Positions 39,525 to 64,000 of a DNA stretch of 64,000 nucleotides are shown piece after piece. Position 1 is the first letter of the stretch. Each line of letters begins with the position of its first letter. The stretch spans positions 248,001 through 312,000 of the forward strand of contig QPGO01000069.1 in assembly GCA_008632985.1 (NCBI GenBank), written 5' to 3'. The translations under genes were made by a program, and so were the position numbers. The DNA comes from Psammoneis japonica. Lineage: Eukaryota. Under the pieces are notes generated by a model, which saw only the letters and a program-made list of their open reading frames with translations, was not told where the DNA came from and ran no database searches.

Positions 39525-39685
39525 ATTGAAAATCTGTTTTTGATTTTTCAGCTCAGAAAAACAGCCTGCTGCACTGATGAGCGAAAGCAACAAAAGCTCA
39601 CATCATTGAGCTTTGCATGCCAGGCAACTCATTTGACAGGATTGCTGTCATGCCAAGAGCTGATTGTGCATTGGACAACCCCAAC
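39525..39685 (+). repeat. Dispersed repeat, second copy at ~48835-48990
   Basis: Shared blocks ttgaaaatc..., gcactgatgagc.aaag, aaagctcacatcat, ccaggcaactc, ggattgctgt, ctgattgt.cattg.acaaccc. Confidence 0.75.
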
Positions 39686-39824
39686 AGAGTTCATGTTTGA
39701 CATCCCATTTTGTTTGTTTGACTTTGCTCATGACACCCAAAACTCCACATTGTGCTGCCCATTTGGCTCATTCTGCACCGGAGTGAAAATGTCACTCAAG
39801 AAGGTGTTTGTTGCCACCCAATTG

Positions 39825-40046
39825 GCTGTCTTTGCTTTGAAGTGAAAATGACAATGTGTTGTGGGGTTTGTCATTAACCGCCAGCTACTGACACAAAAAC
39901 TTTCTCAGAAAATCCCACAAACTTTCAGCCAACAAGCTGTCTTTGCTTTGAAGTGAAAATGACAATGTGTTGTGGGGTTTGCCATCAACCGCCAGCCACT
40001 GACACAAAAACTTTCTCAGAAAATCTCACAAACTTTCAGCCAACAA
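39825..40046. repeat. Tandem duplication, 111-bp unit x2
   Basis: gctgtctttgctttgaagtgaaaatgacaatgtgttgtggggtttg starts at 39825 and 39936. Confidence 0.92.
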
Positions 40047-41861: not shown

Positions 41862-42215
41862 TTAAGAGACCTACAATGACGTCTACGCTATGTACAGTAA
41901 AAAGGAAAGACTACGAGTCGAAGACGACCTTGTGATGCAGCTCCCTAACCTACCCGGATGTGGACTCTCAAAACCTTTCGCAAGTGGATCTTTCCAAATC
42001 TGGCAATGAACTTTAGTTTCTTCCCGATGGGAGGGGTTCGCATGCCACAAAACTCCTTTCAAGGAACGAACGAACGAAGGAACGCACGCACGCAAGATGG
42101 TCAAGACGGTGATTTCGGTCGATCCTAAAGTGGAGCCGTGGAAGCAAAAGAAGACTCCGCTCCCACAATCGCGGGCACCCGGATGTTCCTCCCGTCGCGA
42201 CGGTGAACTCAGAAC

Positions 42216-42439
42216 CGAGTAAATCTAGCTGCCGAAGGCTCAGCCACTCACAGTCTTAGTACGATAGCGCGAATACAACCAATAAGATGCTTCTAGGCCT
42301 GTTACAACTACAACAGATGCAACAAGTGAAAACCATTCTGTGGTCATCGGCATTTTGGTCCGCACACCAGTCACAGTTTCTCCACAGCACCTCCTGCTAG
42401 AGCACACTAGACAGTCCCTGATACATCGGATTTCACTCG
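42216..42439 (-). repeat. 3' LTR (224 bp) of the copia element; PPT GAGGGGA on the minus strand at 42441-42447
   Basis: cgagtaaatctagctgccg...gatttcactcg; direct repeat of 48489-48711. Confidence 0.92.
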
Positions 42440-42624
42440 GTCCCCTCGAAATGTGCCTGACTCGTAAGGCACAATTCGAACCAATGCTGCATCAGCAGTC
42501 TAACTCAAACATCTTGACTCATCAATCGACGTAAAAACCCTTGCCAGGGAAAAGCCGCCAATCCTCTGTGCATGGTGCAAACCCTCACTGGGGAAGAAAC
42601 TCACCACCGCTTCACGTGTCCATC

Positions 42625-45600
42625 TCAATGCGTGAACTTGTCTAACAGAAAATTCCGTCTGATGGACGACATGACCTTCGTGAACAGATTGCCAAGGTTT
42701 GTCTCTGTTCCCTCCTTTGCAATCCCAACAGTCCCCGCAGCAACAGCTTCGCGGTTGCGGTGACACGCAATGGAGTGATGCTTCTTCTTGAGTGTAGACT
42801 CAGGAATGGAGCAATTCTTGTAGACGGCCTCATTGTCACAGAAGACATTTGTTGGCCCTTCAATCGGCACTCCAAACATTCGAAGCTTGCATTGCAGGCC
42901 CTCCATGAGCTCAATGGCATTCTTGAGTGCAACAATCTCAGCCCCAAATGTGCTGGCCTCCACGGTGTTCTGATGCTTCGAGTGCCACACGATGGGTGCC
43001 CGGTTGACAAACATCAAGACACCTGCATGGCTGCGACGATCGGCAACATTTCCGGCATGGTCAGCATCCACAAAACAATGTGTCGATGCCACATCACCTC
43101 GAGCTGGTGGTGCATTTGTCGGAATGGCTTCTCTTGCATCTCGGTGGAAGTCGCGCCAGTCGCACTTCACGAATCGCGATTCATCGATCTTGGGATGAGC
43201 CGGATCAAATGCTGCTTGGCACTTTGGAACCTGTTTGGGGTGTGCAAAGATGTGCAACACCTGTTCCAGATGACCAATGCAAGGAAGAGCGAGGTGAGCA
43301 GACATTGACGAAACCTCCAAATGGGTGTCCACTCTGCCGAGTTCCACAGCCCAAACCAGTGCGCCAATCAGCTCTTGACAGCAGTGAAGTCCTTCAGCGT
43401 CCAACTCGCCAGTGGTGTCTAACTCGGGTTTGCATCCACTGCTCAATGGGGTTGTTGCCTTGCCAGGCAGATGTTTCCCCTCCTTGCCAAGCCTGTCCTC
43501 TACGTTTTGGACAGCGGACTTGCAGTGCTTCTCTGCAGACATTGCCCAACAGGCAGTCCCATTGGCCAAAGTCATCTTGGAAAGCGCAGCACCGAGATGA
43601 GTTTCCGGCTCGGCTGCCTTGTCACCCTTGAGCTTGAACTTGGACCTGATGCCATCCATCGTCTTCATGGGTTCGTGACTGATCGACAGCACGTCGTCCA
43701 CACAAACTAAAATGCATTCGTAGCACTCGAATCCATCGGGTTTCACCGCAGGTCTCATCCATGCATCCGGATCGGCCTTGCTTGGTTTGCACCCTAGATC
43801 ATAAAGCGTCTCCACTGGGAATGCCCTGAACACTGCTCCGGAGCTCTTCAATCCGTGTGGAGCCCTGACCACAATCATGATGCAACCTTCATCCTGCCAA
43901 ACTCGGAACCGGCTCTGGTCCAAATCTTCTCCCTGCAAGGGGCAGCAAGGCAGGCGTTCTGGATGTCACGTGCGAAGACTTGCAAGTCATTGAGCACAGC
44001 AAGCATCAGTGCAATCCTCACCAAATCTCAAGAGACGACAGAGGAGCAAGTGATGTGTGCGGGGGTTTCAGCAGTGTGGCCTCCAGCCACCATGCGAGCT
44101 TTGCGGCGGAAGTTTTCTCCCAACTTGATGTCAAAAATCATGTGACACTTCACTTCCTGGAAACCAGGCACCATGTCCTTAAGCTCCCCTTCATGCTTGT
44201 CAAAAGCAACCCGTGCATTCTTCATCTCCATGCAAATGGCGTCCCACCACAGGGTGTTGCCATTTGCGCGATCGATCTGGATCGCCTCCTCGACACTCTT
44301 TGGGATCCGCATGCCAAATTTGTGTGTTCGTAGCCAACACTTCGACTTGACCTTCGCAATGGAACACTTGCTGGTTTTCATGACATGAGGAACCCACCAA
44401 GCAAACGCTGGCTCACTCGAGATCTTGCGCTGAATGGCAAACTCGGCAACTTGGACTGGGAAGCTCTCCTTCGCAATCTTCAGGTCGATCCAAGTCGCAC
44501 TGCCATCCTTCCATTGGAACAAAAGTTCCCATCCTTTGGCAGTCTTGCGCCTCTTCCGAACGCCTTGCTCGGTCTCAAAGAACTCAGATTCTGGAACGTC
44601 CCCGTTGGTGCGGCAATCAACGATCTCATCAAATGAGACATGCCGGTTTCCGTCCTCGTCGATCTGAGCAAACACATTCATGGCGATGGAGTTAGCAGAG
44701 AGCGCAGCATGGTGCCCATCAGGGCACTCTACCTCATGCATCCTTGCATCAAGGATGGGATTGTCATTGGCTGTTCCTGTCGGAATGCCATTGGCATCTC
44801 TCAACCTCTTCGTGACATGAGCAAACTCAGGTCCATCATCATCTTGTGGAAGCGCAACTTCCATGTTAATGTGTCCCCAGTCCGCCGCCTCCGGTGAGGC
44901 TTCCTCGTTTTTCTTGTCGTCATCGTCATTTGCTGCCTCCTCTGAGGACATGACACAATCCCACTCATCGAGGAATTCATCATCGTATCCAAGGCAGTCC
45001 TTCCAGTCTTTGGGACTGATCTGCGATCCTCGTCGTCGGGGAAGTCTTGCTCCTTCAACCGTCGCTTGATCTCCTCGTCAAAATTGTCAAACTTTGCCTT
45101 TTTCTCTTGAGCAGCGGCTTCCAAATTGGTGACTTGTTGAACAGAAGTTCTGAAGTGACACTGCCTGTCTGTGTCAAGACGTGGTGCGACATGAGACTCC
45201 CTGTCCTGTGAGATGCACCAAGCCACCTGCCGAGCTTCTCGTCCCCTAAACCGGCATTCTCCCTGTGCCAGACCCAATCATAAAATCCAAAGTCAAGGTG
45301 CTCCAAGATGTCCACGGTCTCTCCGAGAACGTTCTCCAGTGGCACTCCAGCATCCAAATGATGTGCTCTGAGGAACGTGTGAGACATGGTCTCACATGTC
45401 CATGTAAATCCGCAGTCCCACAGTGCCACGGTGCTTGCTTCTTGACCATGATGCGGAACCACTTACGTCTGACCTCGCGCACAACCCCTTCTGCAGGATT
45501 CTGGTTGTGTCGATTGGGTTCGATGACACGACAATCTATGCCCTCCTTGCGCACGGTCTTCATGAACTCCGTGCCAGGTTTCGTTTGCTCCTTAGATCCA

Positions 45601-45990
45601 TCCATCAGGAGTTTCTCTGGCACGCCAAATTCCTGGCAAAACATCTTGAGAGCCTTGCCAGCCTTGCTCTTTTTGTCCATGGGATAAATCGCAGCGAAGC
45701 ATTGCTTGTTTGTGAAGATCTGAGCATGTCGATTGCCCTCCAACAAAACCACCTTGCCATCAACCATGTTGGTTGCCCATTCACCCCGTAACCTGGGCTT
45801 CGTGAACATCCGATCGGCCCGATGGCATCGACCCATTGGCATCAACGCTGACCTGATGAGCTTTTGCGTGGTCTTCTTGAGCATGCTGGCTGCTTGCTTG
45901 AGTCCTGTGCACCATCGTTCACTTGAGTCAGCAGCCGACACATCACTGTGTCTCTCCTCAGACATGAATGTCTTCAGGAGTGCCAAGTCT
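42625..45990 (-). pseudogene. Copia pol (integrase-RT-RNase H), frameshifted and hypermutated
   Basis: ORF fragments 45246-45986, 45055-45462, 44028-44951 and 42625-43938 carry copia motifs. The catalytic YVDD reads CVDD. Confidence 0.92.
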
Positions 45991-46767
45991 TCAGGTCCTT
46001 CGCCGATCGTTTCCGTGGCGGAGATCTAGGCTGTTGGCTCTGATTCCACATTGACGGCAGCTGTGAGCCTTGATTGGACTTGATCGACTCCATGAATGAA
46101 TTGCTCATCACAGCAGTCCCCGGATTGAGGGTCACTGTGGGCAGGATCAGCTTTGAACTCGTGTGTCAGATTGGTGTGGATCGTCGCAATTGACCGAACT
46201 AGCTCCATTTCCTCCTCCGCAGATCGTCGAGTTCCAACAGATTTGAACTTGACGGTCTGTGGATCCCAAGGTTGTTGGGAGGTCATCTGGATCTTGGGGC
46301 ATTCGTGCAGTTCCTGCTCTGCAGGAGCACGAGTTGCCGCAACAACATTGGTCCCCACAGCTTCAAGTGGCATCATGAAAGACTTGTCCTCCGTAAGGAT
46401 GTGCAGTGGTGAATCGGAGCAGGGGTTGTCCTGAACCTTAACACCAAAGTGCCACAGCTAGTTTGGGTTAACCAGCGAGTGCTCCATGGACTCCGGCATC
46501 CACAAGCCCTCGTGGAAGACCAGAACAAAAGTTGCTCCCGATGTCGGTGACGTCCACGCCGTGGCTGCCAAGACAATTGGGGCACTCTTGATGGACTCGC
46601 ATCCCTCGTTAAAAGGAGACACGCCTTGTTGAGGTAACGACCTCACAGATGCGTTTGTCGCAGGCACGTGGACACTGCTCCTTTGATTGACACGGCTGTC
46701 CCCCGCCCCATTGTGGCAACCACAACAAGAAGTTTATGATGCAACAAAGCAGGGTCCAGCTTGGCAG

Positions 46768-48198
46768 TCATTTCTGCTTTCCTCGGCGCTTTTCGCTGCG
46801 ACCACCGAATGCGTCTCCGGCATTGTCTCCGTCTCTGCCACCAACCCTTGATTCATCATCACCAGAATCGGCGCTGGCATCAGTGTTCAGGGTGGAGATT
46901 TTGCGGTTCGCTTCTTTAAGCTGCGACAACAGCTTCCGATTCTTCTTCTTGAGTGACTTGACGGATGCAGCACGGCGTTTGGTTGGTTTAGGTTGTTTGG
47001 CAATGCCCAGACGCACGCGCTCGTCGACAACCTTCTGTTTGTCCCCCTTGCTCAACTGGTGCCAATTTTTGTGGCACCCAGTGCCAATGGATCCATCCTC
47101 GTCACAAATGGCACCACCCTCTTTTCCTCCTCCAGAGGCAACTGCGGCAATCGCACGACAATGCGCAATCGTCTCTGGAAGGGTGGCGACTTTGGCAGCA
47201 AGATGATTGGCCGCCGTGGTGAACGTGATGCCTCCTCCAAACTCATTCTGTGCCTTCAAGGTCTCAACTGCCGCCTGCAGTGATTGGTGCTGCGTCTTCT
47301 CAAAAAGGATCCGTAATTTCTGGGCCTCCGTTTTCGGTTCGTCGTTTTCCTCAAAAATGTTGAACATTTCTTGGAGCTTGTTTGCCAACAAATGATTCAA
47401 ACAGCATGGCACGCTCACTCTTGCAATGGAGGGCATTCTCCATGCGCTCAGCTTCAGAGATGCGGCGGGAGGTGTTCCCTTCTCCCTGGTGATGGTCACA
47501 CAACGCCCTAAAGTCAACTCGTCCATTCTGTTGTTCTTGTGGTCTTTCAACCATTGCTCACTGGGTGTGCCCGTGGCAAGGGACTCGATGAGCAAATGAA
47601 CCGTACGAGTGTCAGCCTCGAAAGCTGGGCCTTGGAGGGGTGCACATGCAGTGCACTTCTGGACAAAAGTGTTGTGGCCTTGAGGTTTGGGTGCATCGTT
47701 TTGACGAATGCAATGCACTGGCAGCACGCCAGAGACTCCTGGCACAATGCCAAGCATGTTCATCAAACCAGTGCTCCACTTGACCCAATCCTTTTCGCTC
47801 TCCAACATCCCGGGTGATGCCTCTTCACTGAGAGAGTCAGCAGTGGTCTTGGTCTGGGAATGGATCTCGGCACGACTGAGTGCCATCTGGAGAGCAGCAC
47901 GGAAAGTTGCCTGATCAAGCCCATCCAGAGTGGGGTTCTCGCTCACACGACCAAAGTCCTGCACCCAATGGATGAGAGCTTTGAGTCGATGACTGCGGGC
48001 CAAACCAAAATGAATGCGCCCTTCAGCAACCGTCCTCCCAGCGCATGATGACGCAAGAGAATCGATGTCCTCTTCCTTGAGGTCTTCTAAATCGTCAAAA
48101 GACGCAAAGTCCGCCATGAGCGAGACTCGTTGAGCTGGATCAACAAATCCGATCCATTCGAGTGCTGTCTCGATGGGATCCGGAGGAGCAGCCGCCAT
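46768..48198 (-). pseudogene. Copia gag-like ORF (CoDi type), degenerate
   Basis: IHFGLARSHRLKALIHWVQDF, GVSG.P, APLQGPAFEAD resemble diatom copia gag. The 476-aa ORF contains no Tyr. Confidence 0.8.
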
Positions 48199-48474
48199 GG
48201 TGGCACCTGTGCCAGCAGGAAAACAGAGTCATGTGAGAGATCATAATTTAAAAAGGATGTCTCAGTCTGTGTTGACGACAACACATGGCCGTTGGAAGCA
48301 TGGAGACTGGCCATGTCTCCTCACTGCTCGTGCACCCACTGATGCCAGGCGATGACAATCATCATGCACCCTTTGATCGACCGGCGTTCGTCATCACAAC
48401 CCTGCCACATTGGTGCGATCATCTCTTCACAGTTGTTCAATGCTTTTCGTCAAACTAAACCTGAGTCAACGACT

Positions 48475-48485
48475 TGGCTCTGACA
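48475..48485 (-). other. Primer-binding site resembling the tRNA-iMet complement (TGTCAGAGCCA versus canonical TATCAGAGCCA)
   Basis: Lies 3 nt inside the 5' LTR and matches the TGGTATCAGAGC family except for a TA>TG change and the missing TGG. Confidence 0.6.
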
Positions 48486-48488
48486 AAG

Positions 48489-48711
48489 CGAGTAAATCTA
48501 GCTGCCGAACAGGCTCAGCCACTCACAGTCTTAGTGCGACAGTGCAAATGCAACCAACAAGATGCTTCCAGGCCTGTTGCAACTGCAACAGATGCAACAA
48601 GTGAAAACCATTCTGTGGTCATCGGCATTTTGGTCCGCACACCAGTCACAGTTTCTCCACAGCACCTCCCAGAGCACACTGGACAGTCCCTGACACATCG
48701 GATTTCACTCG
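48489..48711 (-). repeat. 5' LTR (223 bp) of the copia element
   Basis: Direct repeat of 42216-42439. Confidence 0.92.
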
Positions 48712-50479
48712 GAACAAAGGAGACGCTTTTCGGGTGGAGTGCGTGGACTGGACTGGTGGCCAAATCAAGAACAACGACAGCTCGGACAATGTCAAAAACA
48801 TCAATTTGAGCCAGGTCCACTGCCTTTCAGGTCCGATTGAAAATCCATTTTCGATTTTTTTTCTTGGAAAAAACAGACTGTGGCACTGATGAGCAAAAGT
48901 GAAAGCTCACATCATCAAGCTTTGCCCAGGCAACTCTTTCAATGGGATTGCTGTTGCACTGAGGACTGATTGTACATTGAACAACCCTGAAAACAGTGCA
49001 TGGAATTTTGATTGTGACAACAGCCAGTGCGCCCACTCAAATTGTGCCCACAAGTGGTGACCGAACTTCAGCAGCAGCACATTCTGTGTCGTTCGCACAT
49101 GTGCAAGGGCAACGGCAGAGACAGCACCTGCTTGCTGGGGCATCTGAACAGTGCAAGCTAGACAACAATTGTCAATGTGCTGCAACAAGATGCAGCTTCC
49201 AGCTTTCCAGAACATCATTGCTTGAGTCACATGCCACTCGCATGATTGCCAAGTCAGGACTTGCACAAAGAGCCATGAGCTGAGCAAATCAGCCTTTCCC
49301 ATCTCAGCGGATGACCGCTTCATCCCCAAGCATGCACAAATCAATCCAAAGCTTGGCTTCAGCAGCAATCTCAAGGATGATGCTAAAGGAAAAGAGCTTG
49401 CTGCTCAAATGGATGAGTTGGTTGACACCTTTCAACAGAATGCAGCCAACCTCATGCATCAAGCAGCTGTGTGTGAATTGGAGGTTGCGAGCCAGCTGAG
49501 ATTGGAAAAATTTGTCAACGCAAGTGTCACACTCTTCATGTTTTGCACATGCCATGTGATTGAACATGAAAAGAAAGGCACTGTGCCAACCTCACCCCAC
49601 GATGCCTTGGTGGCATGATTTTCACACCAAGTTTCTGGACAGACTTGGTGTCAACTGTTGCACTGACCACCTTGGCACTGCTGACAACAAGGTGATCCAA
49701 GAAACAGCTCATCAGCTGGAACCTCAACCAAGCACTGCCAGAAAACTCCCTGCAGGGCAGTGACCAAGTCTCCCAGGACTCTCAAAGCTCCTCCCAGGAA
49801 ACTCACCTTGACACTCAACCTGACAATGACACAGAAGCCCATTTGCACCAAAACAGTGAGAAGCAGACAGCTGCAGCAATCACCCAAGAAATGGACAAAT
49901 TCTTTCAAGATGTGTTGTTGACCTCCAAGCATCCTTCCATGCAAAAGAGCAGCAGAACTCTGCTTGTGTCAAGACAGCTGCCAGGTGGAAGAAGCACAAA
50001 ATGCTGAAAGTGGCAGATGCTGCCACCGCCACCCTTGAAGATGAGCCTGTGGTGCCATCCCCTGCCATGGAACAGGTGGCACACAAGGCTCTGGAGAAAG
50101 CAGGGCCAAAGCACTTCAAGCAACAGCTGAAAAAAAATGAACAGAAAAGACTCCAAGAGTTGCCAGGAAATCCAAAAACTGGTGATGTTCACACAAAAGA
50201 CATTGCAACCAATGCTGCACAAGAAAAAGGACAAGGGAAATTTAAACAACCTCCCAAAGAAGCAAAAGCATGCCCCTGCAAATCAGAAAAGAAGAGGAGC
50301 ACATCAAGGAGGACAGCGCAACGATGGGCAAAGAGGAACAAAGAACACAAAAAAGCAATGCAGGTGTGGCACCACCACAAAACAGCTTTGCATCCCATCT
50401 TGATGGCCATTCAAGAAACAGCCAACTGCTGCAGACAAGCGCACGGCTTTGCATTGGACTCAGAAAAGCCACCAAAGGA

Positions 50480-50920
50480 GATCACCACCACTGCACTGGG
50501 CACTGTGAATTCCACCAAATGTTTTGCCTGCCCAAAGAACCTGGCCTTCCACAACCCATGCACAGGGCTGCAACCACCCCCAGGCCTTGGTTCATTGCCA
50601 GGTTTTGGCCATGAGTTCTGCATTGAGTCAGCAAAACCCTTCTCTCACAACAGACAATGCACGCAGCAATTGTGACAGTCCATGCACCTGAAACACTTCA
50701 TCAACAACTCGGACTTAGACCTTGGTGAAGACTGCAATCCCAACCTCTGTGTCCCATCCAGCTTCAACCCTCCTCCAATCGAGACTGGATCCATTGAACT
50801 TTGCATGATGAACTTTGTAAATGCAGCAGACTGTGGCAGCCAACAAGCCTCCAAGAGAAGATCTCACTTCAATCTCTCCCCAAGACAATGTCAAGCCCTC
50901 CGCAATCTGCAAAAGGATCT
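50480..50920 (+). mobile_element. Truncated Penelope-like retroelement fragment (region N-terminal to the RT), degenerate
   Basis: PKNLAFHN.C..LQPPPGLGSL.G.G..FCIE, CNPNLCVPSSFNPPP (cf. YNPKLYIxSxWxPP) and NLSPRQCQALRNL. The match ends before the RT core. Confidence 0.55.
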
Positions 50921-51375
50921 GAATGCGATGAGGGATGAGGCGAGTGCTCTCAAAATGATGAAGTGCCGCATCGTACAGCATTCACCGCCCACAACACACC
51001 ACCAAAGCAATGGGACCAGAAAATGAGGTCTCGGGGGAGAAAGTTGAATCAATCGTGTTAGCGTAAAATCTACTGGCGCTCGGTATTCAGTTTCCACGAT
51101 CGAAACGCATCAACCATCGTTCTTAAATCCATGTCACAAGAGACAAATTTTTACGCCAATCAGAATCCTCAATTGCCACACTCAAAACAAAAAGAGGCAT
51201 CATATTTTATCGTGGTCACCGACGACAATTTCATTTTTATTGATGTTGAACTACAACCTTTAAATGTTTCGAACATTTAATGACAAGTATGTGGTTTTGG
51301 CTGTGTTTCATGTGTTCCAAATTCTTGTTTTTCGTCGTTTTCCCCACAACATTCTTTTTGAGACTACGAGTCATC

Positions 51376-54251: not shown

Positions 54252-54604
54252 CTGTATGGGGACATACATGATAAATTTGACCAGTGGTCAAAAATGTGTG
54301 TACATTTTGTACCATAATTCTACGCTGGTAGAAGTTTAACTTTTACGTAAACTTTTGTATCGATTTTTGGTACAAATTTGCACGGTTTTAACGTCTTTAA
54401 CGGATTATTTGAATTAAATAACGAAAAGCGCATGCCTCATTTATAGACCTATAGGGTATGAATAAAAAGTTATTCAAAAACGTTAAACTATGTAGAAAGA
54501 CGTTAAACTTAAACATTTGTAGTACGAGGATATGTATGTACCGTAGCATTCTACACGAGATTTTGACCACTGGTCAAATTTATCATGTATGTCCCCATAC
54601 ACAG
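54252..54604. mobile_element. MITE-like element with 41-bp perfect inverted repeats flanked by TA (Tc1/mariner-like)
   Basis: 54253-54293 (tgtatggggacatacatgataaatttgaccagtggtcaaaa) is the reverse complement of 54561-54601. AT-rich non-coding interior; TA on both outer sides. Confidence 0.8.
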
Positions 54605-54744
54605 TACGTAGGAATGACTTCCTTTTATGTAAAATATAAATACTTTTATTCAACGATATAATATAAACATTAACTACGAAGTAAGTAGTCTCACGTGTTC
54701 CCACGTGATCGACTCACTCCGCGGCCGCTCCCAGTTCTCCTCGC

Positions 54745-55690
54745 AGTTCACAAGGACACCATGCGCGAAGTGAAGCAAGAAGTAGCCGATCGAAAAGCTA
54801 TAGCGCACGGGGAGACCCTTAAAACGATCCTCAGGACCCCACCTGACCTCCAGGCCAGAGCTGTCAAGCGCAGCACCAAGACTGGCGCGTGGCTTTCAGC
54901 ACACCCTTCGACACTGAATGGCGCGGAACTCTCGTGCCAAGAGTTCCATGACGCGCTCTTCCTGCGGCACAGCCACACTCCACCCAACCTCCCGCAGCAC
55001 TGCAATGGATGTGGATGCAAGTTTACGATGAACCACGCCCTTCAGTGCAAGAAGGGCAGCCCAGTCATCTCACAACACGATGAAGTGTCCGTGACAACCT
55101 GGGTGGCCCAGTGGGCAAGGCTTGCAAACCTTCCTGTGCACGCGACAAACCCCTGATCAACCCCACCGGTTGCAGCACAGGAAGCTCAAGCACCCCCACC
55201 AGTTCTCCAGGAAACACTGACTCCAACAAGTCTGAGGAGATGGCAATCGCGGGGACCTTCTCTGCATGCAATTTTGGGACAGAAGGACAGACATGGTGAT
55301 GGACATTGCATCCCTGCCCTGACCGGACGCAAAGTCACACCCATCCAAAACACCAGAAGAAGTTCTGGCAAGCCACAAATGTGAAAAAAAGTGTGAGTGC
55401 CTCAAGCCCTGTCTTGAGCAGCACCATCATTTTGCGCCCTTCGCAGTGTCATGTGACGGACTTTTCAGCAAGGAAGCCAAGGCAATGCTCTGCAAGATGG
55501 CATCGATGCCATCAGACAAATGGCAAAAGCCACACTCTGAAGCATGCGGCCACATCAATGCAAGAATGAGCATTGCCACAGTCCGGGCAACCCACTGTTG
55601 CCTCAGGGGATCCCATGTTCCCGCCTCTCAGATCAGCTCCAGACGACCCCAGTGGGAAGATGGCGCCGGTCTGTCCCCACACAGACACCA
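54745..55690 (+). mobile_element. 3' fragment of an RLE-type (CRE-like) non-LTR retrotransposon, degenerate
   Basis: TGAWLS..PSTLNG.ELS.QEF.DAL.LR, C.GCG.KF...HAL.CKKG zinc knuckle, RGDL-like endonuclease region, DGL..KEAK, ARMSIA.VRATH.CLRGS. Confidence 0.85.
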
Positions 55691-55799
55691 AAGGACCCCA
55701 ATCCAATCAACCCCCACCCTTCCTGACAGCACACCAACTGACTGTCCACCAACACCACCAATGTCATGCCCAGAAGATGACAAAAACCTGCCACCACAC

Positions 55800-58700
55800 T
55801 GAATGCGGCGCCACAATCAACTCAAATGTCGCGTGCACAGCCTGCGATTTGCGTGCAACAACTGCCCCTCACTCACATGACTGCATTGATGCTGCATTTT
55901 CTGTTGTCATGACAAGGAAGTGAGCCATGTTGCATCACTTTTTCTGCTCATGGAAGAGGGCAGATGGATTTGAAATGCTTGGAAGATTCAAAAAGCAGCA
56001 CAAGGAATCAACACCAAGTTTGTGCAGAAAGAGAGCAAGTCAACCCAAGTGTTCTTTGCAATCTGGTTGTCCCCAACTTCATTGCCTTGGGAACTTTTTT
56101 GCTTTCACTGCAGCTGACAAAAATCAGTTGTTTGGGTGCTGGTGCATCAGCACAGCAGAAACTCTGACAGGGGGCTGGCCCACACACTCCCAGCACACCG
56201 GTGCTGTTGATGCAGTTTGGGAGGGGATGTCCAGGACAGGCCAGAACTGGTGTGCCATCATCAGATGAAGCCTGCCCAAAACAACTGGTTGTTGCTCTTG
56301 CAACTTGCACACAGCATTCCAGGCAGCTGGGTTGGCACTGTCCTTCAATGCAGGGTTGCAGCATGACAGCCATCTGCACAGATGGTGAGCAGAGTTTGTC
56401 AAGTGGTCTTCCACTTGACTGGTGAGTGTGATTGTTCTTTGCTTGCATTCATCTCTTCATTTGCAGATCACTCAAATTTGGTCTTTCACATCCTGTCAAC
56501 ATGCCTGTTGTCTCATTTGTTGATTGTCATGCCCATGCATGGCTGTGCTGCATTTGTCCCAAAGATCTTGCCACTTCACCCAAACACACTGGTCCATCCT
56601 TTGTGTGTGGTGACTGCAAAGCTGAGGCCACAGGCCGTGTCATCAAAAATGACACTGCACCTGCAAGCTGAGGTGTTGCCAACTGACTTTTTCTTGAGAG
56701 TCTGCAAACTTGGGCTGCATGAGAAGATGATGCCAGCACAAGTGCAGAATTTCATCACCCAAACACACCAGTCCATGGCAAATGCACCCCAGCTGCGCTC
56801 CTTTGTGTGTGGAGACTGCAGCAAAGCTGAGGCCACAGGCCAAGTCATTGGAAATGACACTGCACATGAAAGCTGAGGTGTCTCCAACTAACTTTTTTTT
56901 AGAGTCTGCAACCTTCTTGAGCTTCATGAGGAGAGGAGATGCTGGCATGAACGCAGAATTTCATCACATGGTTGCTGCTCTCCTGGGTGGCTGGGTGGCC
57001 AACAGAAGAGCAAGCTCTGAGTGGCAGCAGCATGTTGCACAGATCATCTCACACAACTCTTCTTGTGGTGGAGACCTTGGAGAGAGACAAACAGCACCAG
57101 CTGGAGTTGTGCATGCACTGGACCATGCCTGCCCCATCTGTTTGAAGGAGAACAGCAGAGTGCACAACAAGGCATGGGAGGGCAGTTTGAGGTGACAACA
57201 ACAATGCCATGGGCTGGCACAGCAAGGCTGTCAAAATGGCGATCATGATGACAAAGCACAGACCAGCCATTGGGTCTGCCACCACTGTGATGTTGTGGAA
57301 ACACCCTCTGCATCAGAAGAATCAGGATGAGCCATGAGGATTGTGCACTTTGTGCTGGCTGCTCTGCTTCTTGTGCATGCCACTCTTTTCATTTTGCCCT
57401 TGTTTGTCATCAGAGGTGGAGACAATTTAGCTGGGGCTCACTCAAATCATGTGGGTCAAATCTGATGTTTCCACACAGGTTTGACCTGAATTGTGGCCTG
57501 CTGGGTCATGGTTCATTGCAGTTTGGGTGAGCCACACTGGTGTGCCAAATTTTTCATGCAGCTGTGCCTGTCATTTCCTGTTGTCACACCACACAAATGA
57601 CAACCACACTCATGACATTGATGCATTGTTGCATTGCAGCAAACTTTCATTTCATGTTTTTGATGCGTGCTCCCATTTTTTAATGCATTTTCTCTGCCAG
57701 TGTTCAACCATCCAAATGTTGTTTCACATGGTGAATGTCTTTGCCAAAACAAATGTCATTGCGCTGCTGTCATTGATGCATCTGCAAACCACATTTCCCC
57801 TGTTAATTGATGTCATCATCATCCTCCATTGGCACTGCATTGTCCATCACTTGCTTCTTTTCTGTCAACACATTCCCAGAATTGCTTGGACCACAGTTCA
57901 CTGCATTGCTCTGCATCCTTGCTCATCCTCTTTGTGTGTGTCTCCTTTTCCAATTCTTGGCACCTGTCAGTCCTTGTTTGTTCCAACCTTGGCCACTCTT
58001 TTTTGCCTTTTGTCCTTTTCCAGTGCTGTGCTGCACTTCACTGTTGTGCGAGCCTCTGTTCCTGCAGCTTTTCCTTTGCTTTCCCATGCACATGCACCCA
58101 CTTTTTCCAGATGTTCTCCAACATCAGCAGACCAAATGCCTTGTCACTTCCCCATGCCAACTTGTTCAAGCAACACCTTGATTGGAGAGCCAATGTTTCT
58201 GCAATGTCTTCCCAATGACAATGGGCAGGAAGTGGCAGGTGCAGCAGCTGTGTGCCTCCATGGCATTCCTTCCCTCCAGCATGTCCTCCAAGGATGGCAT
58301 GTTTTCATTGTCATGATTCAGCCTGCCTGTTTGTCCACAAAACACATCAACGTGACCTGGGTCAGTGTTTGTTGTCTGTGCTGTTTGCAGTTTCCCCTGC
58401 AGCAATGCTTGCTGAAGAATTCCTTCTTGTTCTCCACAGGCATTGTTCCTCTTTCTTGTTGCTTGTCTTCTCACCTTGTCCTTTGACATGTTCCATGTCT
58501 GCGTCCTGTTTCTGTCCAGCATGTTTGGCTGGACAAAACAGTCTCAACCTCCCTTTCATTGCTGATGGTGTCTTGTGGCCTTGTTGTTCAGAAACTTGCG
58601 CCAATGGAAAAGCACATTCTTGTAGCCAGCAGCTCTCCATGTCCCTGTCATTCATTTTGTCATTGCACCCTTTTTTCTTTCACTTGCCACTCATTGTGTC

Positions 58701-61700
58701 TTCTCCTTCATGTTAAGAGCAGATGCAGACAGAGTCACATTCATCACGACTGACCCCCCGTTGGTTTCCTGCACCATCATCAACACGGGTGCCTCCATCT
58801 CTGTCTCTTGCACTCCCCCTGTCATGCGTGTTTGCTTTGCAGTCCATTGCATGCTGCTGTCAGTGAGCACAATGCAAGCTCTGTTGGCACTTTACACTGT
58901 TGCTTGCATCTTCTCTAACAGGGCTTTGGAGTGGCTGGTTTTGTTGTCTGACAGTTCCTGTGCACAGGGGCATGGTGCAGTTGTGTGTTTTGGTGGTTTC
59001 TGGAGAAGCAAGACTTTTGTTCTGGGATGCACTGCAATCACAGTGCCAGGTGCTGCAATTCTGCACATGTGCACCTGGCAGCCATGTGCTGGATCCTGCT
59101 GTCTTCTGCACCCCTTCTGCAATTTAAAATTCTGGCTAGCATTGTGGCTGGTGGCCTGTTTTTTTTTCAAAACCAAGCTCTGATGCACAGTTGATTGAAG
59201 ATTCAAACACCATGTCTGTCTTTCCATCACACGTCAGGTCACTGCACCCTTTTTTCATGCACAAATCTGTGGTTTGTTTGAGTCACGGTGAGGTGGCTGC
59301 TCCCAATTCATTCAGCTGGACTGCTGCTTTGATCCAGGGCATTTGACTTGCTTCATCACCCCATCTGGCAGTCTGGGGAAACTGACCCCTCTGTTGGAGT
59401 GATCTGAGTGTCAATGTCATGCTCACTTGTTGCTTTGCAGCTGACATCCTGCAAACCAGAAGTGTGCAAGAAGGTTGTCAGAGCAGTCAAGCATGCCATT
59501 AAATGAGTGTGATGTGCCTTGCACACAATCCACAAAACACTCCACATGAGTGTGACAAAGCCTCTCTGTCACAGCTGGACTGTGCTGGCCTGGGATCAGG
59601 CCCACAATCATCCAACCATTGACCATCTCTCAAGTCAAATCAAAGAACCCATTCTGTGGCACAACCACTCACACACTGGCTTTGCAAGGTTGGTGTCTTG
59701 GTGGAAGAATGATGCCAACTTCATGGCTTTGCACACAATGCCATTAGCATCCATTGCAAGTCCATGTCAATTTGGCTCAACATTGGCAACATGACCACGC
59801 AGCTCACCTGCATGAGGGGACCGCACACCCCATGCTTGTTCATGCCATGTGCAGGTGATTGCAGCCTTGACTGTTTGCACAAGTCCATGGTGTCCTTCTT
59901 GTCTGGGGCCAACTGCAACATGTTGCCCCTCAATCAAGTGGTGCACTCATCCTTCATGTGCTCTTTGCTGTCTTTGTGTTGTCCATGCAACACACAACAA
60001 ACTTTGCCTTGCCACAAGGTTTGGTCTCCATGATGATTTCCCGAAATTCCTTGGCTTTGTGTGCTCGCCAAGCACACTTGCCAATCTCATGTGGCAGACT
60101 GTTGTCACTGTGGATGGAGAAGTGCAGTGGTGGAGATGTGCTCATGCACTTGAGGACTCCACAGTCCCTTGGTTGCTTGAACCCAGACTGCAAGTGCTTC
60201 AAAAGTGCCAGTCTGGAAAGCCAACACATGATTGGGTTGAGGTTGTCAAGAATTGCTGGGGTGGGGAATGCCACATTGTGGCCATGATGGTCCTTTGCCT
60301 CATGATGGAGATTGTGGGGGACAAGCTGGAGGAGCCACATGCCATGGTCTGTCAATGCAGTGGACTGCTGAAAAGTGATTCCAACAAGTTTGAGTCTTCC
60401 ATTGTGGAGTGCCAGCATGCAAAGACATGCATGTTGGGTGGAGACCCTGTTTTTCACCTTGTCAATCTTGACTGAATGACATTGAAAGTGTTGGTGTTCA
60501 AGGACATTTTCCATCCTTGAAGAAGGAACCATGGTGGGATGTTGTCACCAGAGAGAAGATGGGAGAGCCAGATTTTCCATTGTTGCAGGATGATCCACCA
60601 ACATTGTGCAAGGGTGTGAAGCCAAGATTGCACACATGGAGGCCACAAGAAACCCCAATCACCAAAAAACTCACCATGTCACAAGACTGGGTGTGTGCCA
60701 TTCTTTCACATGACAAATGGAGAAAAGAGTTCATGGAGACAACAGTGCAGCCAAACTGATCAACATGATGAGTGGTCAATGGAAAGCAACCAAATGGCGC
60801 CAGCAAAACCCAGCTGTCTTGTTCCAACAAGTTGGGATGACTTGGCCTTTTGAAAACAGCACTGCTGTCAAAAACTCACTTTTCAAACCATTGGTGCCAG
60901 AGGTGCAGACAAACTGGAATGTTGTTCTGGCATGGATCCAGAAGCTTGTTGAGGAAACAATTGTTGAAGTTGCTGACATGGCCATTGCCACAACATTCAG
61001 GGGAACAAATTCTTTTCAGTTCCGCCATCAAGATGTGATCTCCATTGCAAGGCATCACATGATGAAGGCCACCTTTCACTTCAGTCACCTTTCCTTCACA
61101 GCCTGCATGCATTGAAATGACAAGCAAACATGACCTCTTTGCAATGAAAAGATTCTGACTGATGTGTGTCATGTCAAAGAATTCATTGTCTGAGTGCTTG
61201 TTTTTCACAATGCAGTGGGATTTGCAAATGCAGTTTTCCCTGTCATGGTGTGCAACTGCTTCCCCACTTCAATTGGCAAAGGCAGCACACAGGGTTTTCA
61301 TGATGATCTCCACTGTTTCTTCCACAATGCTGTTTTGCCTTGGCTCAGAGGGAAGCATCAGAAACATCCACTCCTTCATTGCCTTGCTGGTTTTGGTGAT
61401 GTTGGCCAGGTTGATGAAACAAAAGGGAATGAATCAAATGGTTGCCTTCAACTCCATCACAGATTGGTCACACCAAGATCTTTGAAGTTCAGAATGAGAG
61501 GGGTCCTCGCAGAACATGCAGCCAGTGTGGCACTCTCCCATTTGAGAGTGGCAGGAATGCCCCAGTTCCTTGATGCCTTGCACTGACAGAACCACACCAG
61601 CCATTGAGAAACACTGTTCACACCAGATCTTTCAGCTTGAGAGGAAAAATTGATGACAATGCAGATGAAATCATGGCGAAAGTTTCCTCTTCTCTTTTTG

Positions 61701-64000
61701 AAGCTTGCAGTCAATCCATGATGGTTGATGCAACCAAATGGCCAGCATGGAATTTCCTCAGGTGAGTGGGTTTCAACTTCAATTGCTGTGTCCAACATGT
61801 GTGAAAATGGCGACAAAGTGGCAAGGCTGGGAATGTGCAAGTGCCCAAGCATGGAACAGCTGCACTGTGCCAAGGAAGGAAAGGCAGCAAGTTCAAAGAT
61901 GGCATTCACAGAGGAAAGCAAATGACCAAAAGCATCAAATTTGCACTTCATCTGCACTGCTTTAAAATTGGGGATGCACTTGTCAACCAGCGCGCTGGTT
62001 CTGAAGTGTTCCATGCTGACATGCTGATGCTTTTAGGAGACTGGGGAAGAGAGCTGCAAATGTCCCACACAGCATTGACATGTGGTGGACAAAAATGCTC
62101 TCCTCCACAACCTGTCTGTCATGCTCTTGACTCATGCATCCAATTGCAGCAGTGCACTGTGGCTCTCTGGCATTGCCAAAGGCACCCCAAGAGAGCAAAA
62201 CAATGTTTTTTTTTCATTTTTTCACAGAGCTGCTGGGCTTGTTGAAATGACTTTCCAAAAGATGCCAGCACACAACATCCAGGGTGGATCTTGTTGCGCC
62301 TTTCTTGGCAATGTTGTTGCTGGGGTGATTGTGGTTGAACAAAAATGCATCATCTGACTGCCAGTGAAGACCTTGAACTTGCTTGATCCAGTCAGAAACA
62401 AAACCAAATGCAGACAAAACTGTGGGATCCTCAACCAAGCACATGATGCCAATGCCAACACCATTGTGAGAATGTTTCCATCTGGTGCATTGACTCAAAT
62501 TTTTTTTTTTCATCATCCTTGTGCATGCCCAGCAATTGATGCTTGGTGAAACCAGAGGAGGAAGAAGACTTGGACACAGAAAAGGCATGACAACCATCCA
62601 ACTCTGTCAGATCATCAGCAGGTGTTTGGCTGGCTTTCCTGGAAAGAGCCCGGAAATCCAGATGATCAAGGATGGAATGACCAACATTGACAACATGGAA
62701 GCAATGATTGCCGTGGTCACTGTTGGTGAATGGACTTCAAAACTCAAGGCATTGCCAGTGTGATGGAAAGTGGCAATGGACTTTTCCATGTTCTTGGAGC
62801 AAGCCATCATGCAGCAACAATGCCTCCCGTCAATGCAAGTGGATGCCCAGCCAATGTCAAGATCAGGCAGCACCAAGTGAGTGCAAATGACATGCTGCAC
62901 TGCTGCTCTTGACTTGCCTTCCCCACATTGCACAATTCTGGTGCACTCTTCCAGAAGGCATCTTTGGGTTGCTTGCAGACCATGCCAACATTCTCAAGTC
63001 CTCTCCATTTGCTGGGCAATGATTTGGGGACAGAAGCAGAAGTCTTGGTGGAGACAAGAGAAGGAGCTGTTGCAGAAGATTGAGGCAGACTTTTTTGGAC
63101 TGGTGACCACTTGTTGGCCAAGGCCACTCGTGGGGACAGAGATGGCAGCAGAAATGTCAGAAGCACACCACACAGATGAAATGACATGCACAGGAAGCAG
63201 AGCTTGACTTGGAGCCAACAGAACAGTGAAAGGGAGTGACAAAGACATTGTCAGACCAGATGTGGCATTGAAAAATGAGGGTGGCACATTGAACAATTGA
63301 GCTGGAATGGCAGGAGAGGATGCACCCCCCACAGTGCAAGACATCAAGCTCAAATCAATGCAGGAAGAGACACAGTGGGACAAGGCACCAAATGCAAGGT
63401 TCCACCAAGCACACCTTCTCCTGATCTCTGCAAGATCCCAATCCCACAAAGAAGGATCCAGCTGTTGCACCAAAGCAATGTGTGGGTGCACAGTGGGAGC
63501 GGTCATGGACAGAGTTGTTTGAAGGCAACTGAGACAAGCAAACTGCACCGCTGACTGGGCAGGCATGGGATGAACCCTGGCATCATCATCAGAGAGCCAT
63601 TGAACCATCACAGTTAAAAGATGTCTTGTCTTCTCTGTCAAAGAGCTCAAGCCTGCTCTTTTTGCTGAAAAACACTCAAAATCTTTCCTCTGTCTGTCTG
63701 TGGTGTGATGGGTGAGCAAACAACATGGGAAAGTGACAACTCAGTGAGCTGGCCATGAGCAAGGCAAGGCAGATGGTGGCAAGTTCACTTTTGCTCCATT
63801 GTGGCTTCAACAGTTGACTTGCCAAGAAGAGAAAGGTCTGGGAGCACCAAAAGAGAAAATGCAAACTCAATCAAGAATGTGCAGTGCAGGCAAGCAAGGA
63901 AAAAGCTGTGAGGGCCCAGAAGACAACCTCCATTTCCAATGTCAATTTCTCATTGACAATCAGCAATGCCAATTTCTCAAGTGTTGAAAAACTTGAGGAG
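55800..64000. other. Heavily decayed repeat-like DNA, depleted of both TpA and CpG; family not identified
   Basis: Saturated with TG/CA, only Tyr-free spurious ORFs. Internal direct repeat at 56597-56710 / 56800-56914. Confidence 0.65.

Follow-up and report, generated by a model that had tools for sequence, protein, structure and literature searches.

Probable TA-to-CA/TG hypermutation of silent DNA, distinct from CpG decay, in a 64-kb window of the diatom Psammoneis japonica

In the interval 54,690-57,500 of a 64-kb stretch of Psammoneis japonica DNA (hereafter, the window), TA and CG dinucleotides are lost over different distances. The locus raises the question of whether TA is removed by a process of its own and, if so, what sets the limits of that process. 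The interval had been described as a gradient across one retroelement, in which TA is lost before CG on moving away from a gene, and the counts agreed with the three zones of that description. The first 141 bp (54,690-54,830), where the string singled out in the original prediction was found, retain 4 TA and 14 CG; the following 1,030 bp (54,831-55,860) contain 38 CG versus a single TA, at position 55,024; and both steps are nearly gone from the next 1,640 bp (55,861-57,500; 5 CG and 3 TA). In the second zone, the observed/expected ratio (o/e) was 0.02 for TA, 0.49 for CG, 1.48 for CA, and 2.04 for TG, and the Poisson probability of finding one TA or fewer at the genic rate of 36.1 per kb is 2.7e-15. 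The interior of a copia element located upstream in the window, likewise described as CG-rich and TA-poor, proved to be so, with 285 CG and 41 TA (CG o/e 0.69, TA o/e 0.12).

HMM segmentation of the window on TA, CA, and TG sites called five TA-depleted domains (Table 1). Depleted DNA contains 121 TA in 32,158 bp (3.8 per kb), compared to 1,166 in 31,024 bp (37.6 per kb) of normal DNA; over the whole window, TA o/e is 0.32 and CA/TG o/e is 1.45. The sum of TA, CG, CA, and TG is constant, at 234-260 per kb, in all long segments compared (237-240 in genic DNA, 238 in the copia interior, and 234-243 in old DNA). What disappears as TA and CG is thus found again as CA and TG. GC content is flat across the window, since TA loss, which turns AT into GC, and CG loss, which turns GC into AT, cancel each other out. 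Within the window, the CG-poor domains called by the HMM are all nested in TA-poor ones; in domain 4, the CG-depleted portion is limited to 48,516-50,892. Three younger stretches are TA-poor yet CG-rich: the copia element, the repeat at 54.8-55.9 kb, and the tandem repeat at 7.4-8.2 kb (CG o/e 0.85, TA o/e 0.07). Identical boundaries of TA and CG depletion, which would have spoken against the original prediction, were not seen; at three places the two lie 0.2 to 6 kb apart.

Table 1. Coordinates of TA-depleted domains and of the elements located in or next to them (window positions)
Feature	Position	Strand	Remarks
TA-depleted domain 1	2753..4678		8 TA / 412 TA/CA/TG sites
Host-type gene fragments in TA-erased DNA	2805..3940		HCF136/Ycf48 (-), PGP phosphatase (+)
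TA-depleted domain 2	6645..16705		30 TA / 2,143 sites; includes tandem repeat 7,402-8,206
TA-depleted domain 3	38397..41141		15 TA / 615 sites
Copia LTR, spared	42213..42440	-	adjoins TA-normal DNA
Copia interior	42541..48485	-	5,945 bp; TA erased, CG mostly kept, Tyr to His/Cys
TA-depleted domain 4 (copia and old DNA)	42542..51024		51 TA / 1,694 sites
Copia LTR, hypermutated	48486..48712	-	adjoins old decayed DNA
MITE	54253..54601		50-nt TIRs; TA-rich, not hypermutated
Spared edge of dispersed repeat	54690..54830	+	adjoins TA-normal DNA; TA and CG kept
Repeat body	54831..55860	+	TA erased, CG partly kept, broken ORFs
TA-depleted domain 5 (repeat and old DNA)	54832..63994		17 TA / 2,158 sites
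Repeat family end / junction to old single-copy DNA	55804..55884		depth fall, CG step
Old decayed DNA	55861..63994		TA and CG both converted to CA/TG

Transposons, a host-gene pseudogene fragment, and unidentifiable old DNA were all hit, while the MITE was spared. The host-type fragments in domain 1 gave partial Pfam matches to PSII_BNR (5.3e-16 and 1.5e-4) and PGP_phosphatase (7.3e-10), and only 2 TA are present in 2,753-4,098. In the HCF136/Ycf48 pseudogene, both tyrosines that could be aligned with 5oj3_A are now histidines. A PDB sequence search with the PGP-phosphatase fragment returned no match, and one with the ORF at 40,230-41,861 returned nothing meaningful. No transposon domain was found by Pfam in three sets of 38, 28, and 123 ORFs of TA-poor DNA. 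The TIRs of the MITE (54,253-54,302 and 54,552-54,601) are 92% complementary, and TA o/e in 54,240-54,600 is 1.04.

The copia element was characterized through its reverse transcriptase (RT)/RNase H ORF, P0122 (42,628-43,965), for which the library contains 20,204 homologs at E<=0.001 and which aligns to residues 925-1,348 of homolog P0127 (E 1e-122). The full-length homologs P0127, P0132, and P0135 carry RVT_2, and in P0132 an rve match at 350-406 is followed by RVT_2 at 833-1,039. Judged by its LTR pair, the RVT_2-type RT, and the position of the integrase before the RT, the element at 42,213-48,712 is a Ty1/copia LTR retrotransposon. The element's own ORFs gave no Pfam match, even at E<=10. 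At 14 conserved tyrosine columns of its RT/RNase H, there are now 6 His, 7 Cys, and 1 Tyr, whereas in 40 control homologs, the 546 cells of the same columns include 461 Tyr, 9 His, and 2 Cys. All 13 recoded codons are now CAY or TGY, and the RT motif is CVDD instead of the consensus YVDD of the homologs. In the copia element, histidine, the replacement named in the original prediction, thus makes up only half of the pattern, as cysteine is equally common.

The two LTRs of one element are identical at insertion, being made so by reverse transcription. The LTRs of the copia element are 92% identical over 230 bp and differ by 14 substitutions per 226 aligned bases, of which 10 are at TA, 2 at CG, and 2 elsewhere. 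Compared to its twin, the hypermutated LTR contains five TA to TG, five TA to CA, one CG to TG, and one CG to CA change; there are no TA or CG changes in the reverse direction, and every one of the changes is on the LTR next to old DNA. Within the aligned block, the spared LTR retains 13 TA along with 9 CG; its TA (o/e 0.73) and CA/TG levels are normal, and the TA-normal state extends beyond it, to position 42,532. Thus, 10 of 13 TA sites were changed versus 2 of 9 CG sites (Fisher p 0.027), and 10 changes fell on 26 TA bases versus 2 on ca. 182 bases outside TA and CG. Since LTRs that were identical at insertion now differ at 10 TA, we conclude that these TA were lost post-insertion. In this one LTR pair from one 64-kb window, TA loss behaves as a process of its own that runs ahead of CpG decay, as had been proposed.

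The two products of the change are equally frequent, with 5 TG versus 5 CA in the LTR and 7 Cys versus 6 His in RT/RNase H. Both strands must therefore have been hit. Survival of TA depends on its neighbors, and was 2.1% in RTAY, 6.9% in mixed contexts, and 36.8% in YTAR (chi-square p 3.7e-28); the context effect was also seen when the copia element was compared to its relatives (p 6e-8). The share still present is 2.4% for TAT and 23% for TAA, and all four asymmetric LTR losses are of the TAY to TGY or RTA to RCA type. A purine before TA is a preference only, as 4 of 6 Tyr to His codons follow a purine.

Metagenomic relatives of the copia element were retrieved with a 5-protein alignment, and the best 80 were compared. 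Their TA o/e ranged from 0.38 to 1.05, and some had lost CG (o/e 0.06-0.30) but kept TA (0.38-0.67). Extreme TA loss was present in none of these best 80 relatives; hosts of this copia lineage thus do not generally have the process. A copia query in viral contigs yielded 52 pattern matches, with no relative among them. Comparison to other copies revealed 1,143 variant places; the 38 best-supported differences, 35 of which lie in the copia element, include 15 private CG losses and 4 private TA losses. With so few private TA losses, a large part of the TA loss in the copia element is either common to other copies or occurred there in parallel.

Contig depth was used to follow the repeat at 54.7-55.9 kb. 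Summed depth is 1,600-2,100 over 54,816-55,883, compared to ca. 50-70 for single-copy DNA. The spared edge belongs to the repeat family (depth 1,746 at 54,748), and three of its four remaining TA are in contexts in which only ca. 7% survive inside mutated domains. At the other end, depth falls from 1,626 (bin 55,350-55,883) to 69.8 (bin 55,884-56,417) and is ca. 66-70 from there on, and a contig that is single-copy at the 80% likeness setting (6,742 bp, depth 66.5, 1 difference) begins at 55,804. The last cluster of CG is at 55,806-55,852, and the following CG does not occur until 56,199. Because of the fall in depth and the start of the single-copy contig, we conclude that the third zone is different, older DNA. 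Its entire length to 63,994 (8,134 bp) contains 35 CG and 16 TA (TA o/e 0.03, CG o/e 0.08, CA/TG o/e 1.9), and no Pfam domain was found in its ORFs of at least 90 aa. The zones thus do not belong to one retroelement, as the repeat family stops at ca. 55.80-55.88 kb, where CG drops. Nor is a smooth gradient with distance from a gene supported: the CG step at ca. 55.86 kb is the place where the end of the repeat meets old DNA, and the step therefore reflects age, not distance. What stands of the gradient is the TA edge, which at 54,820/54,832 does lie within the repeat. What looked like a gradient has two components, a repeat edge that was protected and, farther along, the point where this repeat borders on far older DNA. 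The interval would consist of a spared 141-bp edge of a young, high-copy repeat abutting TA-normal DNA, the repeat body, where TA has probably been erased with CG partly left, and, from ca. 55.86 kb, presumably unrelated old DNA that has lost both.

The identity of the repeat was addressed through its plus-strand ORFs at 54,689-55,156 and 55,323-55,802, which are in different frames and in which the strings LRH and KPHSEACGH, putatively derived from the tyrosine-containing LRY and KPYSE.CGY, were found. The first contains a C-x2-C-x7-H-x3-C string, which we take to match the CCHC zinc knuckle motif of CRE/R2-type families. No frame piece of 54,690-55,860 matched a reverse transcriptase domain in Pfam, even at E<=10, and no homologs of the repeat ORF were found at near or longer lengths. 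An Atlas search with it yielded unnamed clusters and a weak zf-RVT lead (score 0.89, family on 28% of members). If the repeat is a CRE/R2-type non-LTR retrotransposon, this copy would have lost its 5' part up to a point beyond the RT. Part of the TA loss in the repeat could have been inherited from a source copy that was already mutated.

Several other explanations of the pattern were considered. That a single retroelement spans all three zones, with two silencing-linked decays that fade with gene distance and TA loss reaching closer, appears unlikely to us. The TA edge inside high-depth repeat sequence fits this explanation, as do the decrease of CG o/e in the repeat from 1.26 to 0.71 to 0.42 away from the edge and the HMM change in CG at 55,036/55,043, 210 bp past the change in TA. 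However, the main CG step coincides with the repeat-family end and the start of the single-copy contig, CG in the copia interior stays at 19-32 per 500 bp throughout 6 kb with no gradient, and the fall within the repeat may be its original composition. A TA-poor composition that was inherited or selected, through codon habit or an advantage in escaping a nuclease that cuts at TA or transposons that target it, is very improbable. Many TA-free positions of the copia element are indeed common to most copies, with only the 4 private TA losses mentioned above among the best-supported differences, but conserved and partly catalytic tyrosines were replaced (CVDD versus YVDD), the best 80 relatives are not TA-poor to this extent, the twin LTRs are unlike each other, and the same loss is seen in single-copy junk DNA and in a host pseudogene.

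Likewise, we give almost no credence to RNA editing before integration, i.e., ADAR-like A-to-I conversion in retroelement RNA followed by reverse transcription, even though both young elements are taken as retroelements and the favored U before the edited A resembles the context observed here. Reverse transcription would have equalized the LTRs, which differ by 10 TA changes; T to C is as frequent as A to G on the coding strand (6 His versus 7 Cys); DNA that is not retroelement-derived (the pseudogene fragment, the tandem repeat, and old single-copy DNA) is also affected; and the edge of each element was spared in place. The wide overlap of TA-poor and CG-poor domains, four borders of which agree within ca. 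150 bp, would be expected if TA loss were a by-product of cytosine methylation decay or of general decay in heterochromatin, or an artefact of sequencing or assembly. This, too, is extremely improbable: there is no cytosine in TA, stretches with a CG o/e as high as 0.69-0.85 have lost TA completely, and copies in other organisms lose CG and keep TA. General decay is contradicted by the LTR pair, in which bases outside TA and CG are hardly changed, and an artefact by Logan contigs, which reproduce the TA-free DNA with 0-1 differences per 2-kb stretch, though possibly from the same sample as the assembly.

Hypermutation of TA to CA/TG at the DNA level in silent domains, distinct from slower CpG decay, is thus, in our judgment, highly probable. 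The type of mutation, its polarity, strand symmetry, context, speed relative to CpG decay, and domain edges are shown by the counts and comparisons above. In the proposed process, about half of the window, taken as nuclear DNA of a pennate diatom, would have been hypermutated (32 kb in five domains). At the palindromic TA step, an A:T pair would turn into G:C on one strand or the other, which yields CA or TG. The best context is RTAY and the worst YTAR, and the process would act on whole silent domains, among them transposons, tandem repeats, fragments of pseudogenes, and old junk. Saturation would be reached within the time needed for ca. 1% change at ordinary sites, and CG to TG/CA conversion in the same domains would be much slower, presumably through deamination of 5-methylcytosine. 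Both young elements have 140-330 bp spared at the end on the TA-normal side, which suggests targeting by chromatin domain. The chromatin state would spread from neighboring old silent DNA and would stop 140-330 bp short of the element end that faces active DNA. The chemistry may be enzymatic deamination of adenine in DNA to inosine, which is read as G; we put this forward tentatively, with somewhat more doubt than confidence, and a thymine-modifying route is the main alternative. Two other sources of mutation were considered and rejected: UV TA-photoproducts, as the LTR pair has no dipyrimidine C to T changes outside CG, and GC-biased gene conversion, which would not be limited to TA.

Repeat-induced point mutation (RIP) of ascomycete fungi converts CpA to TpA (C to T), which raises TA and AT content; it requires duplicated sequence and tends to leak beyond the repeat. 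As in RIP, transposons here are riddled with transitions at one dinucleotide, ORFs are killed, and a dinucleotide footprint is left, but the polarity is opposite (TA o/e 0.02-0.12, CA/TG o/e 1.5-2.0). Moreover, the old mutated DNA is now single-copy, though it may have been repeated when hit, the 349-bp MITE, itself repeated, was spared, and the mutated zone ends inside an element rather than past it. ADAR, which acts on RNA, hyper-edits repeat-derived double-stranded RNA in animals, and to our knowledge it is confined to them. It resembles the present process in making A-to-G changes and in favoring U or T before the edited A, as noted for ADAR in the Discussion of a recent preprint (Mettrop et al., bioRxiv 10.64898/2026.01.13.699255). 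It differs in its substrate: here, both DNA strands carry the changes, these became fixed only after integration, and DNA other than retroelements carries them as well. As for CpG decay, LTR retrotransposons of Phaeodactylum tricornutum are described as cytosine-methylated, apparently at CpG (PMC2806351). Decay of methylated transposons explains the CG to TG/CA part of the pattern, which grows with the age of DNA, but it cannot remove TA and lags behind TA loss in the window.

The same preprint, on the chlorarachniophyte Bigelowiella natans, was the sole precedent in the literature searched, where none was found for diatoms. As described in its text, TpA hypermutation in B. natans targets integrated giant-virus and virophage DNA, is local and orders of magnitude above background, and leads in the long term to TpA depletion and a gain of CpA and TpG; the TpA to CpA/TpG signature arises in mutation-accumulation lines, and the footprint extends to CDS in which reverse transcriptase and DDE endonuclease domains are enriched (10.64898/2026.01.13.699255). 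On that account, the two systems share A to G and T to C changes at TpA only, TpG and CpA products on two strands, and a regional distribution. B. natans is a rhizarian, whereas the diatom is a stramenopile; mutations were observed arising there, whereas the window holds a footprint only; TA depletion here is near saturation, compared to the Rho of 0.45 given for the B. natans NCLDV region; and the targets seen in the window comprise transposons, one tandem repeat, fragments of pseudogenes, and old junk. The words 'context', 'flanking', 'trinucleotide', and 'CpG' are absent from the text of the preprint, whose supplements may hold context data. Relative to that text, three things are new: the extended context (RTAY over YTAR), the sparing of element edges, and how TA loss relates to CpG decay. 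Given that a chlorarachniophyte acquires this signature live, stramenopiles and rhizarians (SAR supergroup) may have the system in common. An 'inverse RIP' in the diatom, i.e., a chromatin-guided genome-defence enzyme that acts on the palindromic RTAY in silent DNA, turns A:T into G:C there, and is common to this supergroup, is a reading that we regard as close to evenly balanced, with doubt slightly prevailing. Such a system would erase Tyr codons, TATA-like signals, and TAA/TAG stops of transposons in a very short evolutionary time.

There are practical consequences for annotation. DNA that is free of TA lacks TAA and TAG stops, which results in long false ORFs in all frames; the window contains 82 ORFs of at least 150 aa, many in junk DNA. 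Pfam fails on the mutated copia proteins, and, because GC content is flat, GC-based scans miss the TA- and CG-depleted domains. The RTAY context, the sharply bounded domains, and LTR pairs, which serve as internal clocks, provide a natural read-out toward the enzyme. If the hypermutation is real, a phenomenon described in one 2026 preprint would be extended to a second, distant lineage, and diatoms, which are major ocean primary producers, would possess a transposon-killing mutation system of which the diatom literature searched makes no mention. If the 'inverse RIP' reading is also true, it would constitute a second, independent eukaryotic DNA-editing immunity beside cytosine deaminases and RIP.

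TA steps in the flagged interval were located at 54,783, 54,799, 54,801, 54,820, and 55,024, with the next one occurring only at 56,889. CG was dense up to 55,852; beyond this point, counting revealed single CG steps at 56,199, 56,636, 56,796, 56,952, and 57,240 only. If TA occurred at the genic rate of 36.1 per kb, a 1,030-bp stretch would hold no more than one with a Poisson probability of 2.7e-15. We conclude that the three composition zones of the original prediction (see table) are real and far beyond chance.

The original prediction also placed all three zones on one retroelement, along which TA and then CG would be lost with distance from the gene. To obtain copy number, contigs of a public sequencing run of the same organism were placed on the window at 80% likeness, and their depths were summed. 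Summed depth was about 50-140 over genes and 1,000-3,800 over the copia element. It was already 1,746 at position 54,748, stood at 1,600-2,100 over 54,816-55,883, and was 66-70 from 55,884 onward; a single-copy-depth contig of 6,742 bp begins at 55,804. By these depths, the dispersed high-copy repeat extends from 54,741 or earlier to about 55.80-55.88 kb; its CRE-like identity in the original prediction is putative, as is a former Tyr in its LRH and KPHSEACGH strings. The end of the repeat family falls at the CG step, and zone 3 is thus older DNA, unrelated to the repeat. Of the two edges, only that of TA, at 54,820/54,832, is within the repeat. We conclude that zones 2 and 3 differ in CG because they differ in age and not because of their distance from the gene, and that a gradient along a single retroelement is contradicted.

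Coordinates of features within the window (domains called by two-state segmentation; o/e, observed/expected)
Feature	Position	Strand	Remarks
Zone 1	54,690-54,830		4 TA, 14 CG
Zone 2	54,831-55,860		1 TA, 38 CG; TA o/e 0.02, CG o/e 0.49
Zone 3, near part	55,861-57,500		3 TA, 5 CG
TA-depleted domain	2,753-4,678		two-state segmentation
TA-depleted domain	6,645-16,705		two-state segmentation
TA-depleted domain	38,397-41,141		two-state segmentation
TA-depleted domain	42,542-51,024		two-state segmentation
TA-depleted domain	54,832-63,994		two-state segmentation
HCF136/Ycf48 partial fragment	within 2,805-3,940	-	Pfam positions 134-256 of 303, frame broken
PGP phosphatase partial fragment	within 2,805-3,940	+	Pfam positions 74-129 of 168
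Spared LTR of copia element	42,213-42,440		
Far (48.5-kb) LTR of copia element	48,486-48,712		
Tandem repeat	7,476-8,011		about 3 copies of a 180-bp unit, 84-88% identical; TA o/e 0.07, CG o/e 0.85
Direct repeats in fully decayed DNA	56,597-56,758/56,799-56,967; 39,525-39,695/48,836-49,002		low identity (81% and 76%)
MITE	54,253-54,601		349 bp, 50-nt terminal inverted repeats; TA o/e 1.04
CG-poor patch	23,161-23,537		377 bp; 6 CG among 70 sites
P5A-type ATPase gene	24,483-28,252	+	two overlapping frames, 24,483-26,141 and 25,895-28,252
ORF across TA boundary	40,230-41,861	+	543 aa; boundary at 41,141/41,153
N run (assembly gap)	6,133-6,642		510 bases
N run (assembly gap)	8,995-9,214		220 bases

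Across the window, five TA-depleted domains make up about half of the sequence and together contain 121 TA in 32,158 bp, versus 1,166 TA in 31,024 bp in the remainder, a tenfold higher level. The sum of TA, CG, CA, and TG was 234-260 per kb across all long segments (237-240 in genic DNA, 238 in the copia interior, and 234-243 in old DNA); the TA and CG that were lost therefore persist as CA and TG. GC content is flat along the window, since the TA and CG conversions offset each other. Both N runs lie in or adjoin TA-depleted repeat DNA. A Pfam search of the large old stretches revealed no domain. The direct repeats found in fully decayed DNA give a hint that decayed "junk" is made up of ancient repeat relics.

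The direction of the change was established on the copia element. Self-comparison revealed one LTR pair in the window. The two LTRs of one element are identical at integration; here, they differ by 14 substitutions over 226 aligned bases (five TA->TG, five TA->CA, one CG->TG, one CG->CA, and two others at the block edge). All 12 TA and CG differences are losses on the 48.5-kb LTR side, while about 182 bases outside TA and CG carry two changes. Levels of TA and of CA/TG in the spared LTR are ordinary, and TA o/e in the 80 best metagenomic copia relatives is 0.38-1.05, none of them showing extreme TA poverty. In P0122, the RT/RNase H ORF of the element (minus strand), 14 columns contain Tyr in at least 60% of 40 homologs. 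At these columns P0122 has His six times, Cys seven times, and Tyr once, while of the 546 homolog cells there, 461 hold Tyr, 9 His, and 2 Cys. CVDD stands in the RT motif at the place of YVDD in the homolog consensus. Because the spared LTR is ordinary, relatives contain TA, and homologs have Tyr at the recoded columns, the polarity is TA to CA/TG. Since His (T>C) is about as frequent as Cys (A>G) in the protein, and the LTR shows TG as often as CA, both strands of the DNA were struck.

A Pfam search of the element's own mutated ORFs gave no match. The library contains 20,204 homologs of P0122 (E<=0.001); the full-length ones carry RVT_2, preceded by rve in one, and as judged by these homologs the element at 42.2-48.7 kb, on the minus strand, is a copia element. 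When this stretch was compared with other copies, of the 38 differences with the best support (from 40 listed of 1,143 variant places, 35 of the 38 being in the copia element), 15 were private CG losses and four private TA losses. Most copia TA loss is therefore common to other copies, or arose there in parallel. Besides P0122, four of 130 scorable library proteins (P0172, P0255, P0191, and P0259) are without Tyr, with His or Cys instead, at 64-91% of Tyr columns, and the same footprint is thus present in other public assemblies. All four are fragments of copia RT, come from assemblies in Logan and ENA, and have a Tyr content of 0-0.9%.

Loss of TA depends on flanking bases. Relative to normal density, 2.1% of TA survived in the RTAY context, 6.9% with mixed flanks, and 36.8% in YTAR (R, purine; Y, pyrimidine; chi-square p 3.7e-28); by trinucleotide, 2.4% of TAT, 6% of TAC, 13% of TAG, and 23% of TAA were left. 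Residual copia TA also differed by context from the 80 relatives (p 6e-8). In asymmetric contexts of the LTR pair, 4/4 losses were TAY->TGY or RTA->RCA, and four of six Tyr->His codons were preceded by a purine. The context rule is a preference only.

As originally predicted, TA loss is separable from CpG decay and faster. In the LTR pair, 10 of 13 TA sites had changed versus 2 of 9 CG sites (Fisher p 0.027). In segments with CG o/e from 0.85 down to 0.05, TA o/e was already 0.12 or less, the exception being the far LTR (227 bp, TA o/e 0.23), and no long segment of the window had an intermediate TA level. Each long CG-poor domain is nested in a TA-poor one; the lone CG-poor patch outside lies in genic, TA-normal DNA. 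Rather than coinciding, TA and CG borders differ at three places: 42,542 vs 48,516, 54,832 vs 55,043 (or about 55,860), and 6,645 vs 8,227, the last also holding an island of normal CG, 7,402-8,206. At 7.4-8.2 kb, the tandem repeat lacks TA yet is rich in CG. Copia relatives elsewhere had CG/TA o/e of 0.06/0.38 (L066), 0.24/0.60 (L037), 0.27/0.67 (L002), and 0.30/0.58 (L049); CG can thus be lost with TA kept in other organisms' copies of this lineage.

In both the copia element and the 54.7-55.9 kb repeat, the mutated domain runs without a break into old silent DNA, and mutation halts 140-330 bp before the end facing TA-normal DNA. In copia, the TA-normal state passes through the LTR adjoining TA-normal DNA and about 100 bp on, ending at 42,532; the element beyond, continuing into old decayed DNA, is mutated. 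The MITE beside the gene is unmutated; it directly adjoins the hypermutated repeat. The HCF136/Ycf48 and PGP phosphatase fragments, probably dead duplicates of host genes, lie back-to-back in TA-erased DNA, and 2/2 aligned Tyr read His; the process therefore extends beyond transposons. As edges and the gene-side MITE are spared and a pseudogene fragment is hit, a domain rule appears more likely than a homology or foreign-DNA rule. Silent chromatin would spread from adjoining old DNA and target the mutation. If the MITE is TA-targeting (Tc1/mariner), TA-erased domains would, speculatively, give it no insertion sites.

We conclude that the change is a post-integration, DNA-level, strand-symmetric conversion of TA to CA/TG, which is context-dependent, domain-confined, and outruns CpG decay. 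RNA editing, inherited composition, UV damage, biased gene conversion, and artefact were each contradicted by specific results. The chemistry might be adenine deamination in DNA, a tentative assignment that falls somewhat short of even odds. A thymine-modifying route may act instead, for example through 5-hydroxymethyl- or 5-formyluracil, which pair with G, and would leave the same footprint. Adenine deamination has also been proposed for the chlorarachniophyte Bigelowiella natans (bioRxiv 10.64898/2026.01.13.699255).

The window contains long, nearly intron-free ORFs for eukaryotic proteins of ordinary kinds, namely a SET-domain protein, an ABC transporter, a P5A-type ATPase, a PPR protein, an inositol-phosphatase-like protein, a RING/PA protein, and SepSecS, the last 74-77% identical to proteins of Pseudo-nitzschia, Nitzschia, Cylindrotheca, Mayamaea, and Seminavis. 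From these best hits we infer that the window is nuclear DNA from a raphid pennate diatom. The split frame of the ATPase gene is probably due to an intron or frameshift. In TA-depleted DNA, e.g., at 55,900-64,000, long ORFs overlap in several frames on both strands, because TGA is the only possible stop there. The ORF across the TA boundary, TA-free in its first 900 bp, had no Pfam or PDB match, and the absence of TAA/TAG stops may have falsely lengthened it upstream. TA-free DNA thus misleads gene predictors through long false ORFs.

The main text of the B. natans preprint describes the same signature arising live in mutation-accumulation lines, with integrated giant-virus and virophage DNA as targets and with TpA-poor CDS enriched in reverse transcriptase and DDE domains; diatoms, CpG, and flanking context are not mentioned there (bioRxiv 10.64898/2026.01.13.699255). 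Full-text literature searches yielded no further description of TA hypermutation, and none for diatoms; the portions of diatom transposon papers covered, including PMC2806351, do not mention hypermutation or dinucleotide bias. Fungal RIP is a functional analogue of diatom TA loss, but its polarity is opposite. The case is best classed with the newly described TpA hypermutation, here in a new phylum, and beyond B. natans it adds a context rule, the behaviour at domain edges, and the relation to CpG decay.
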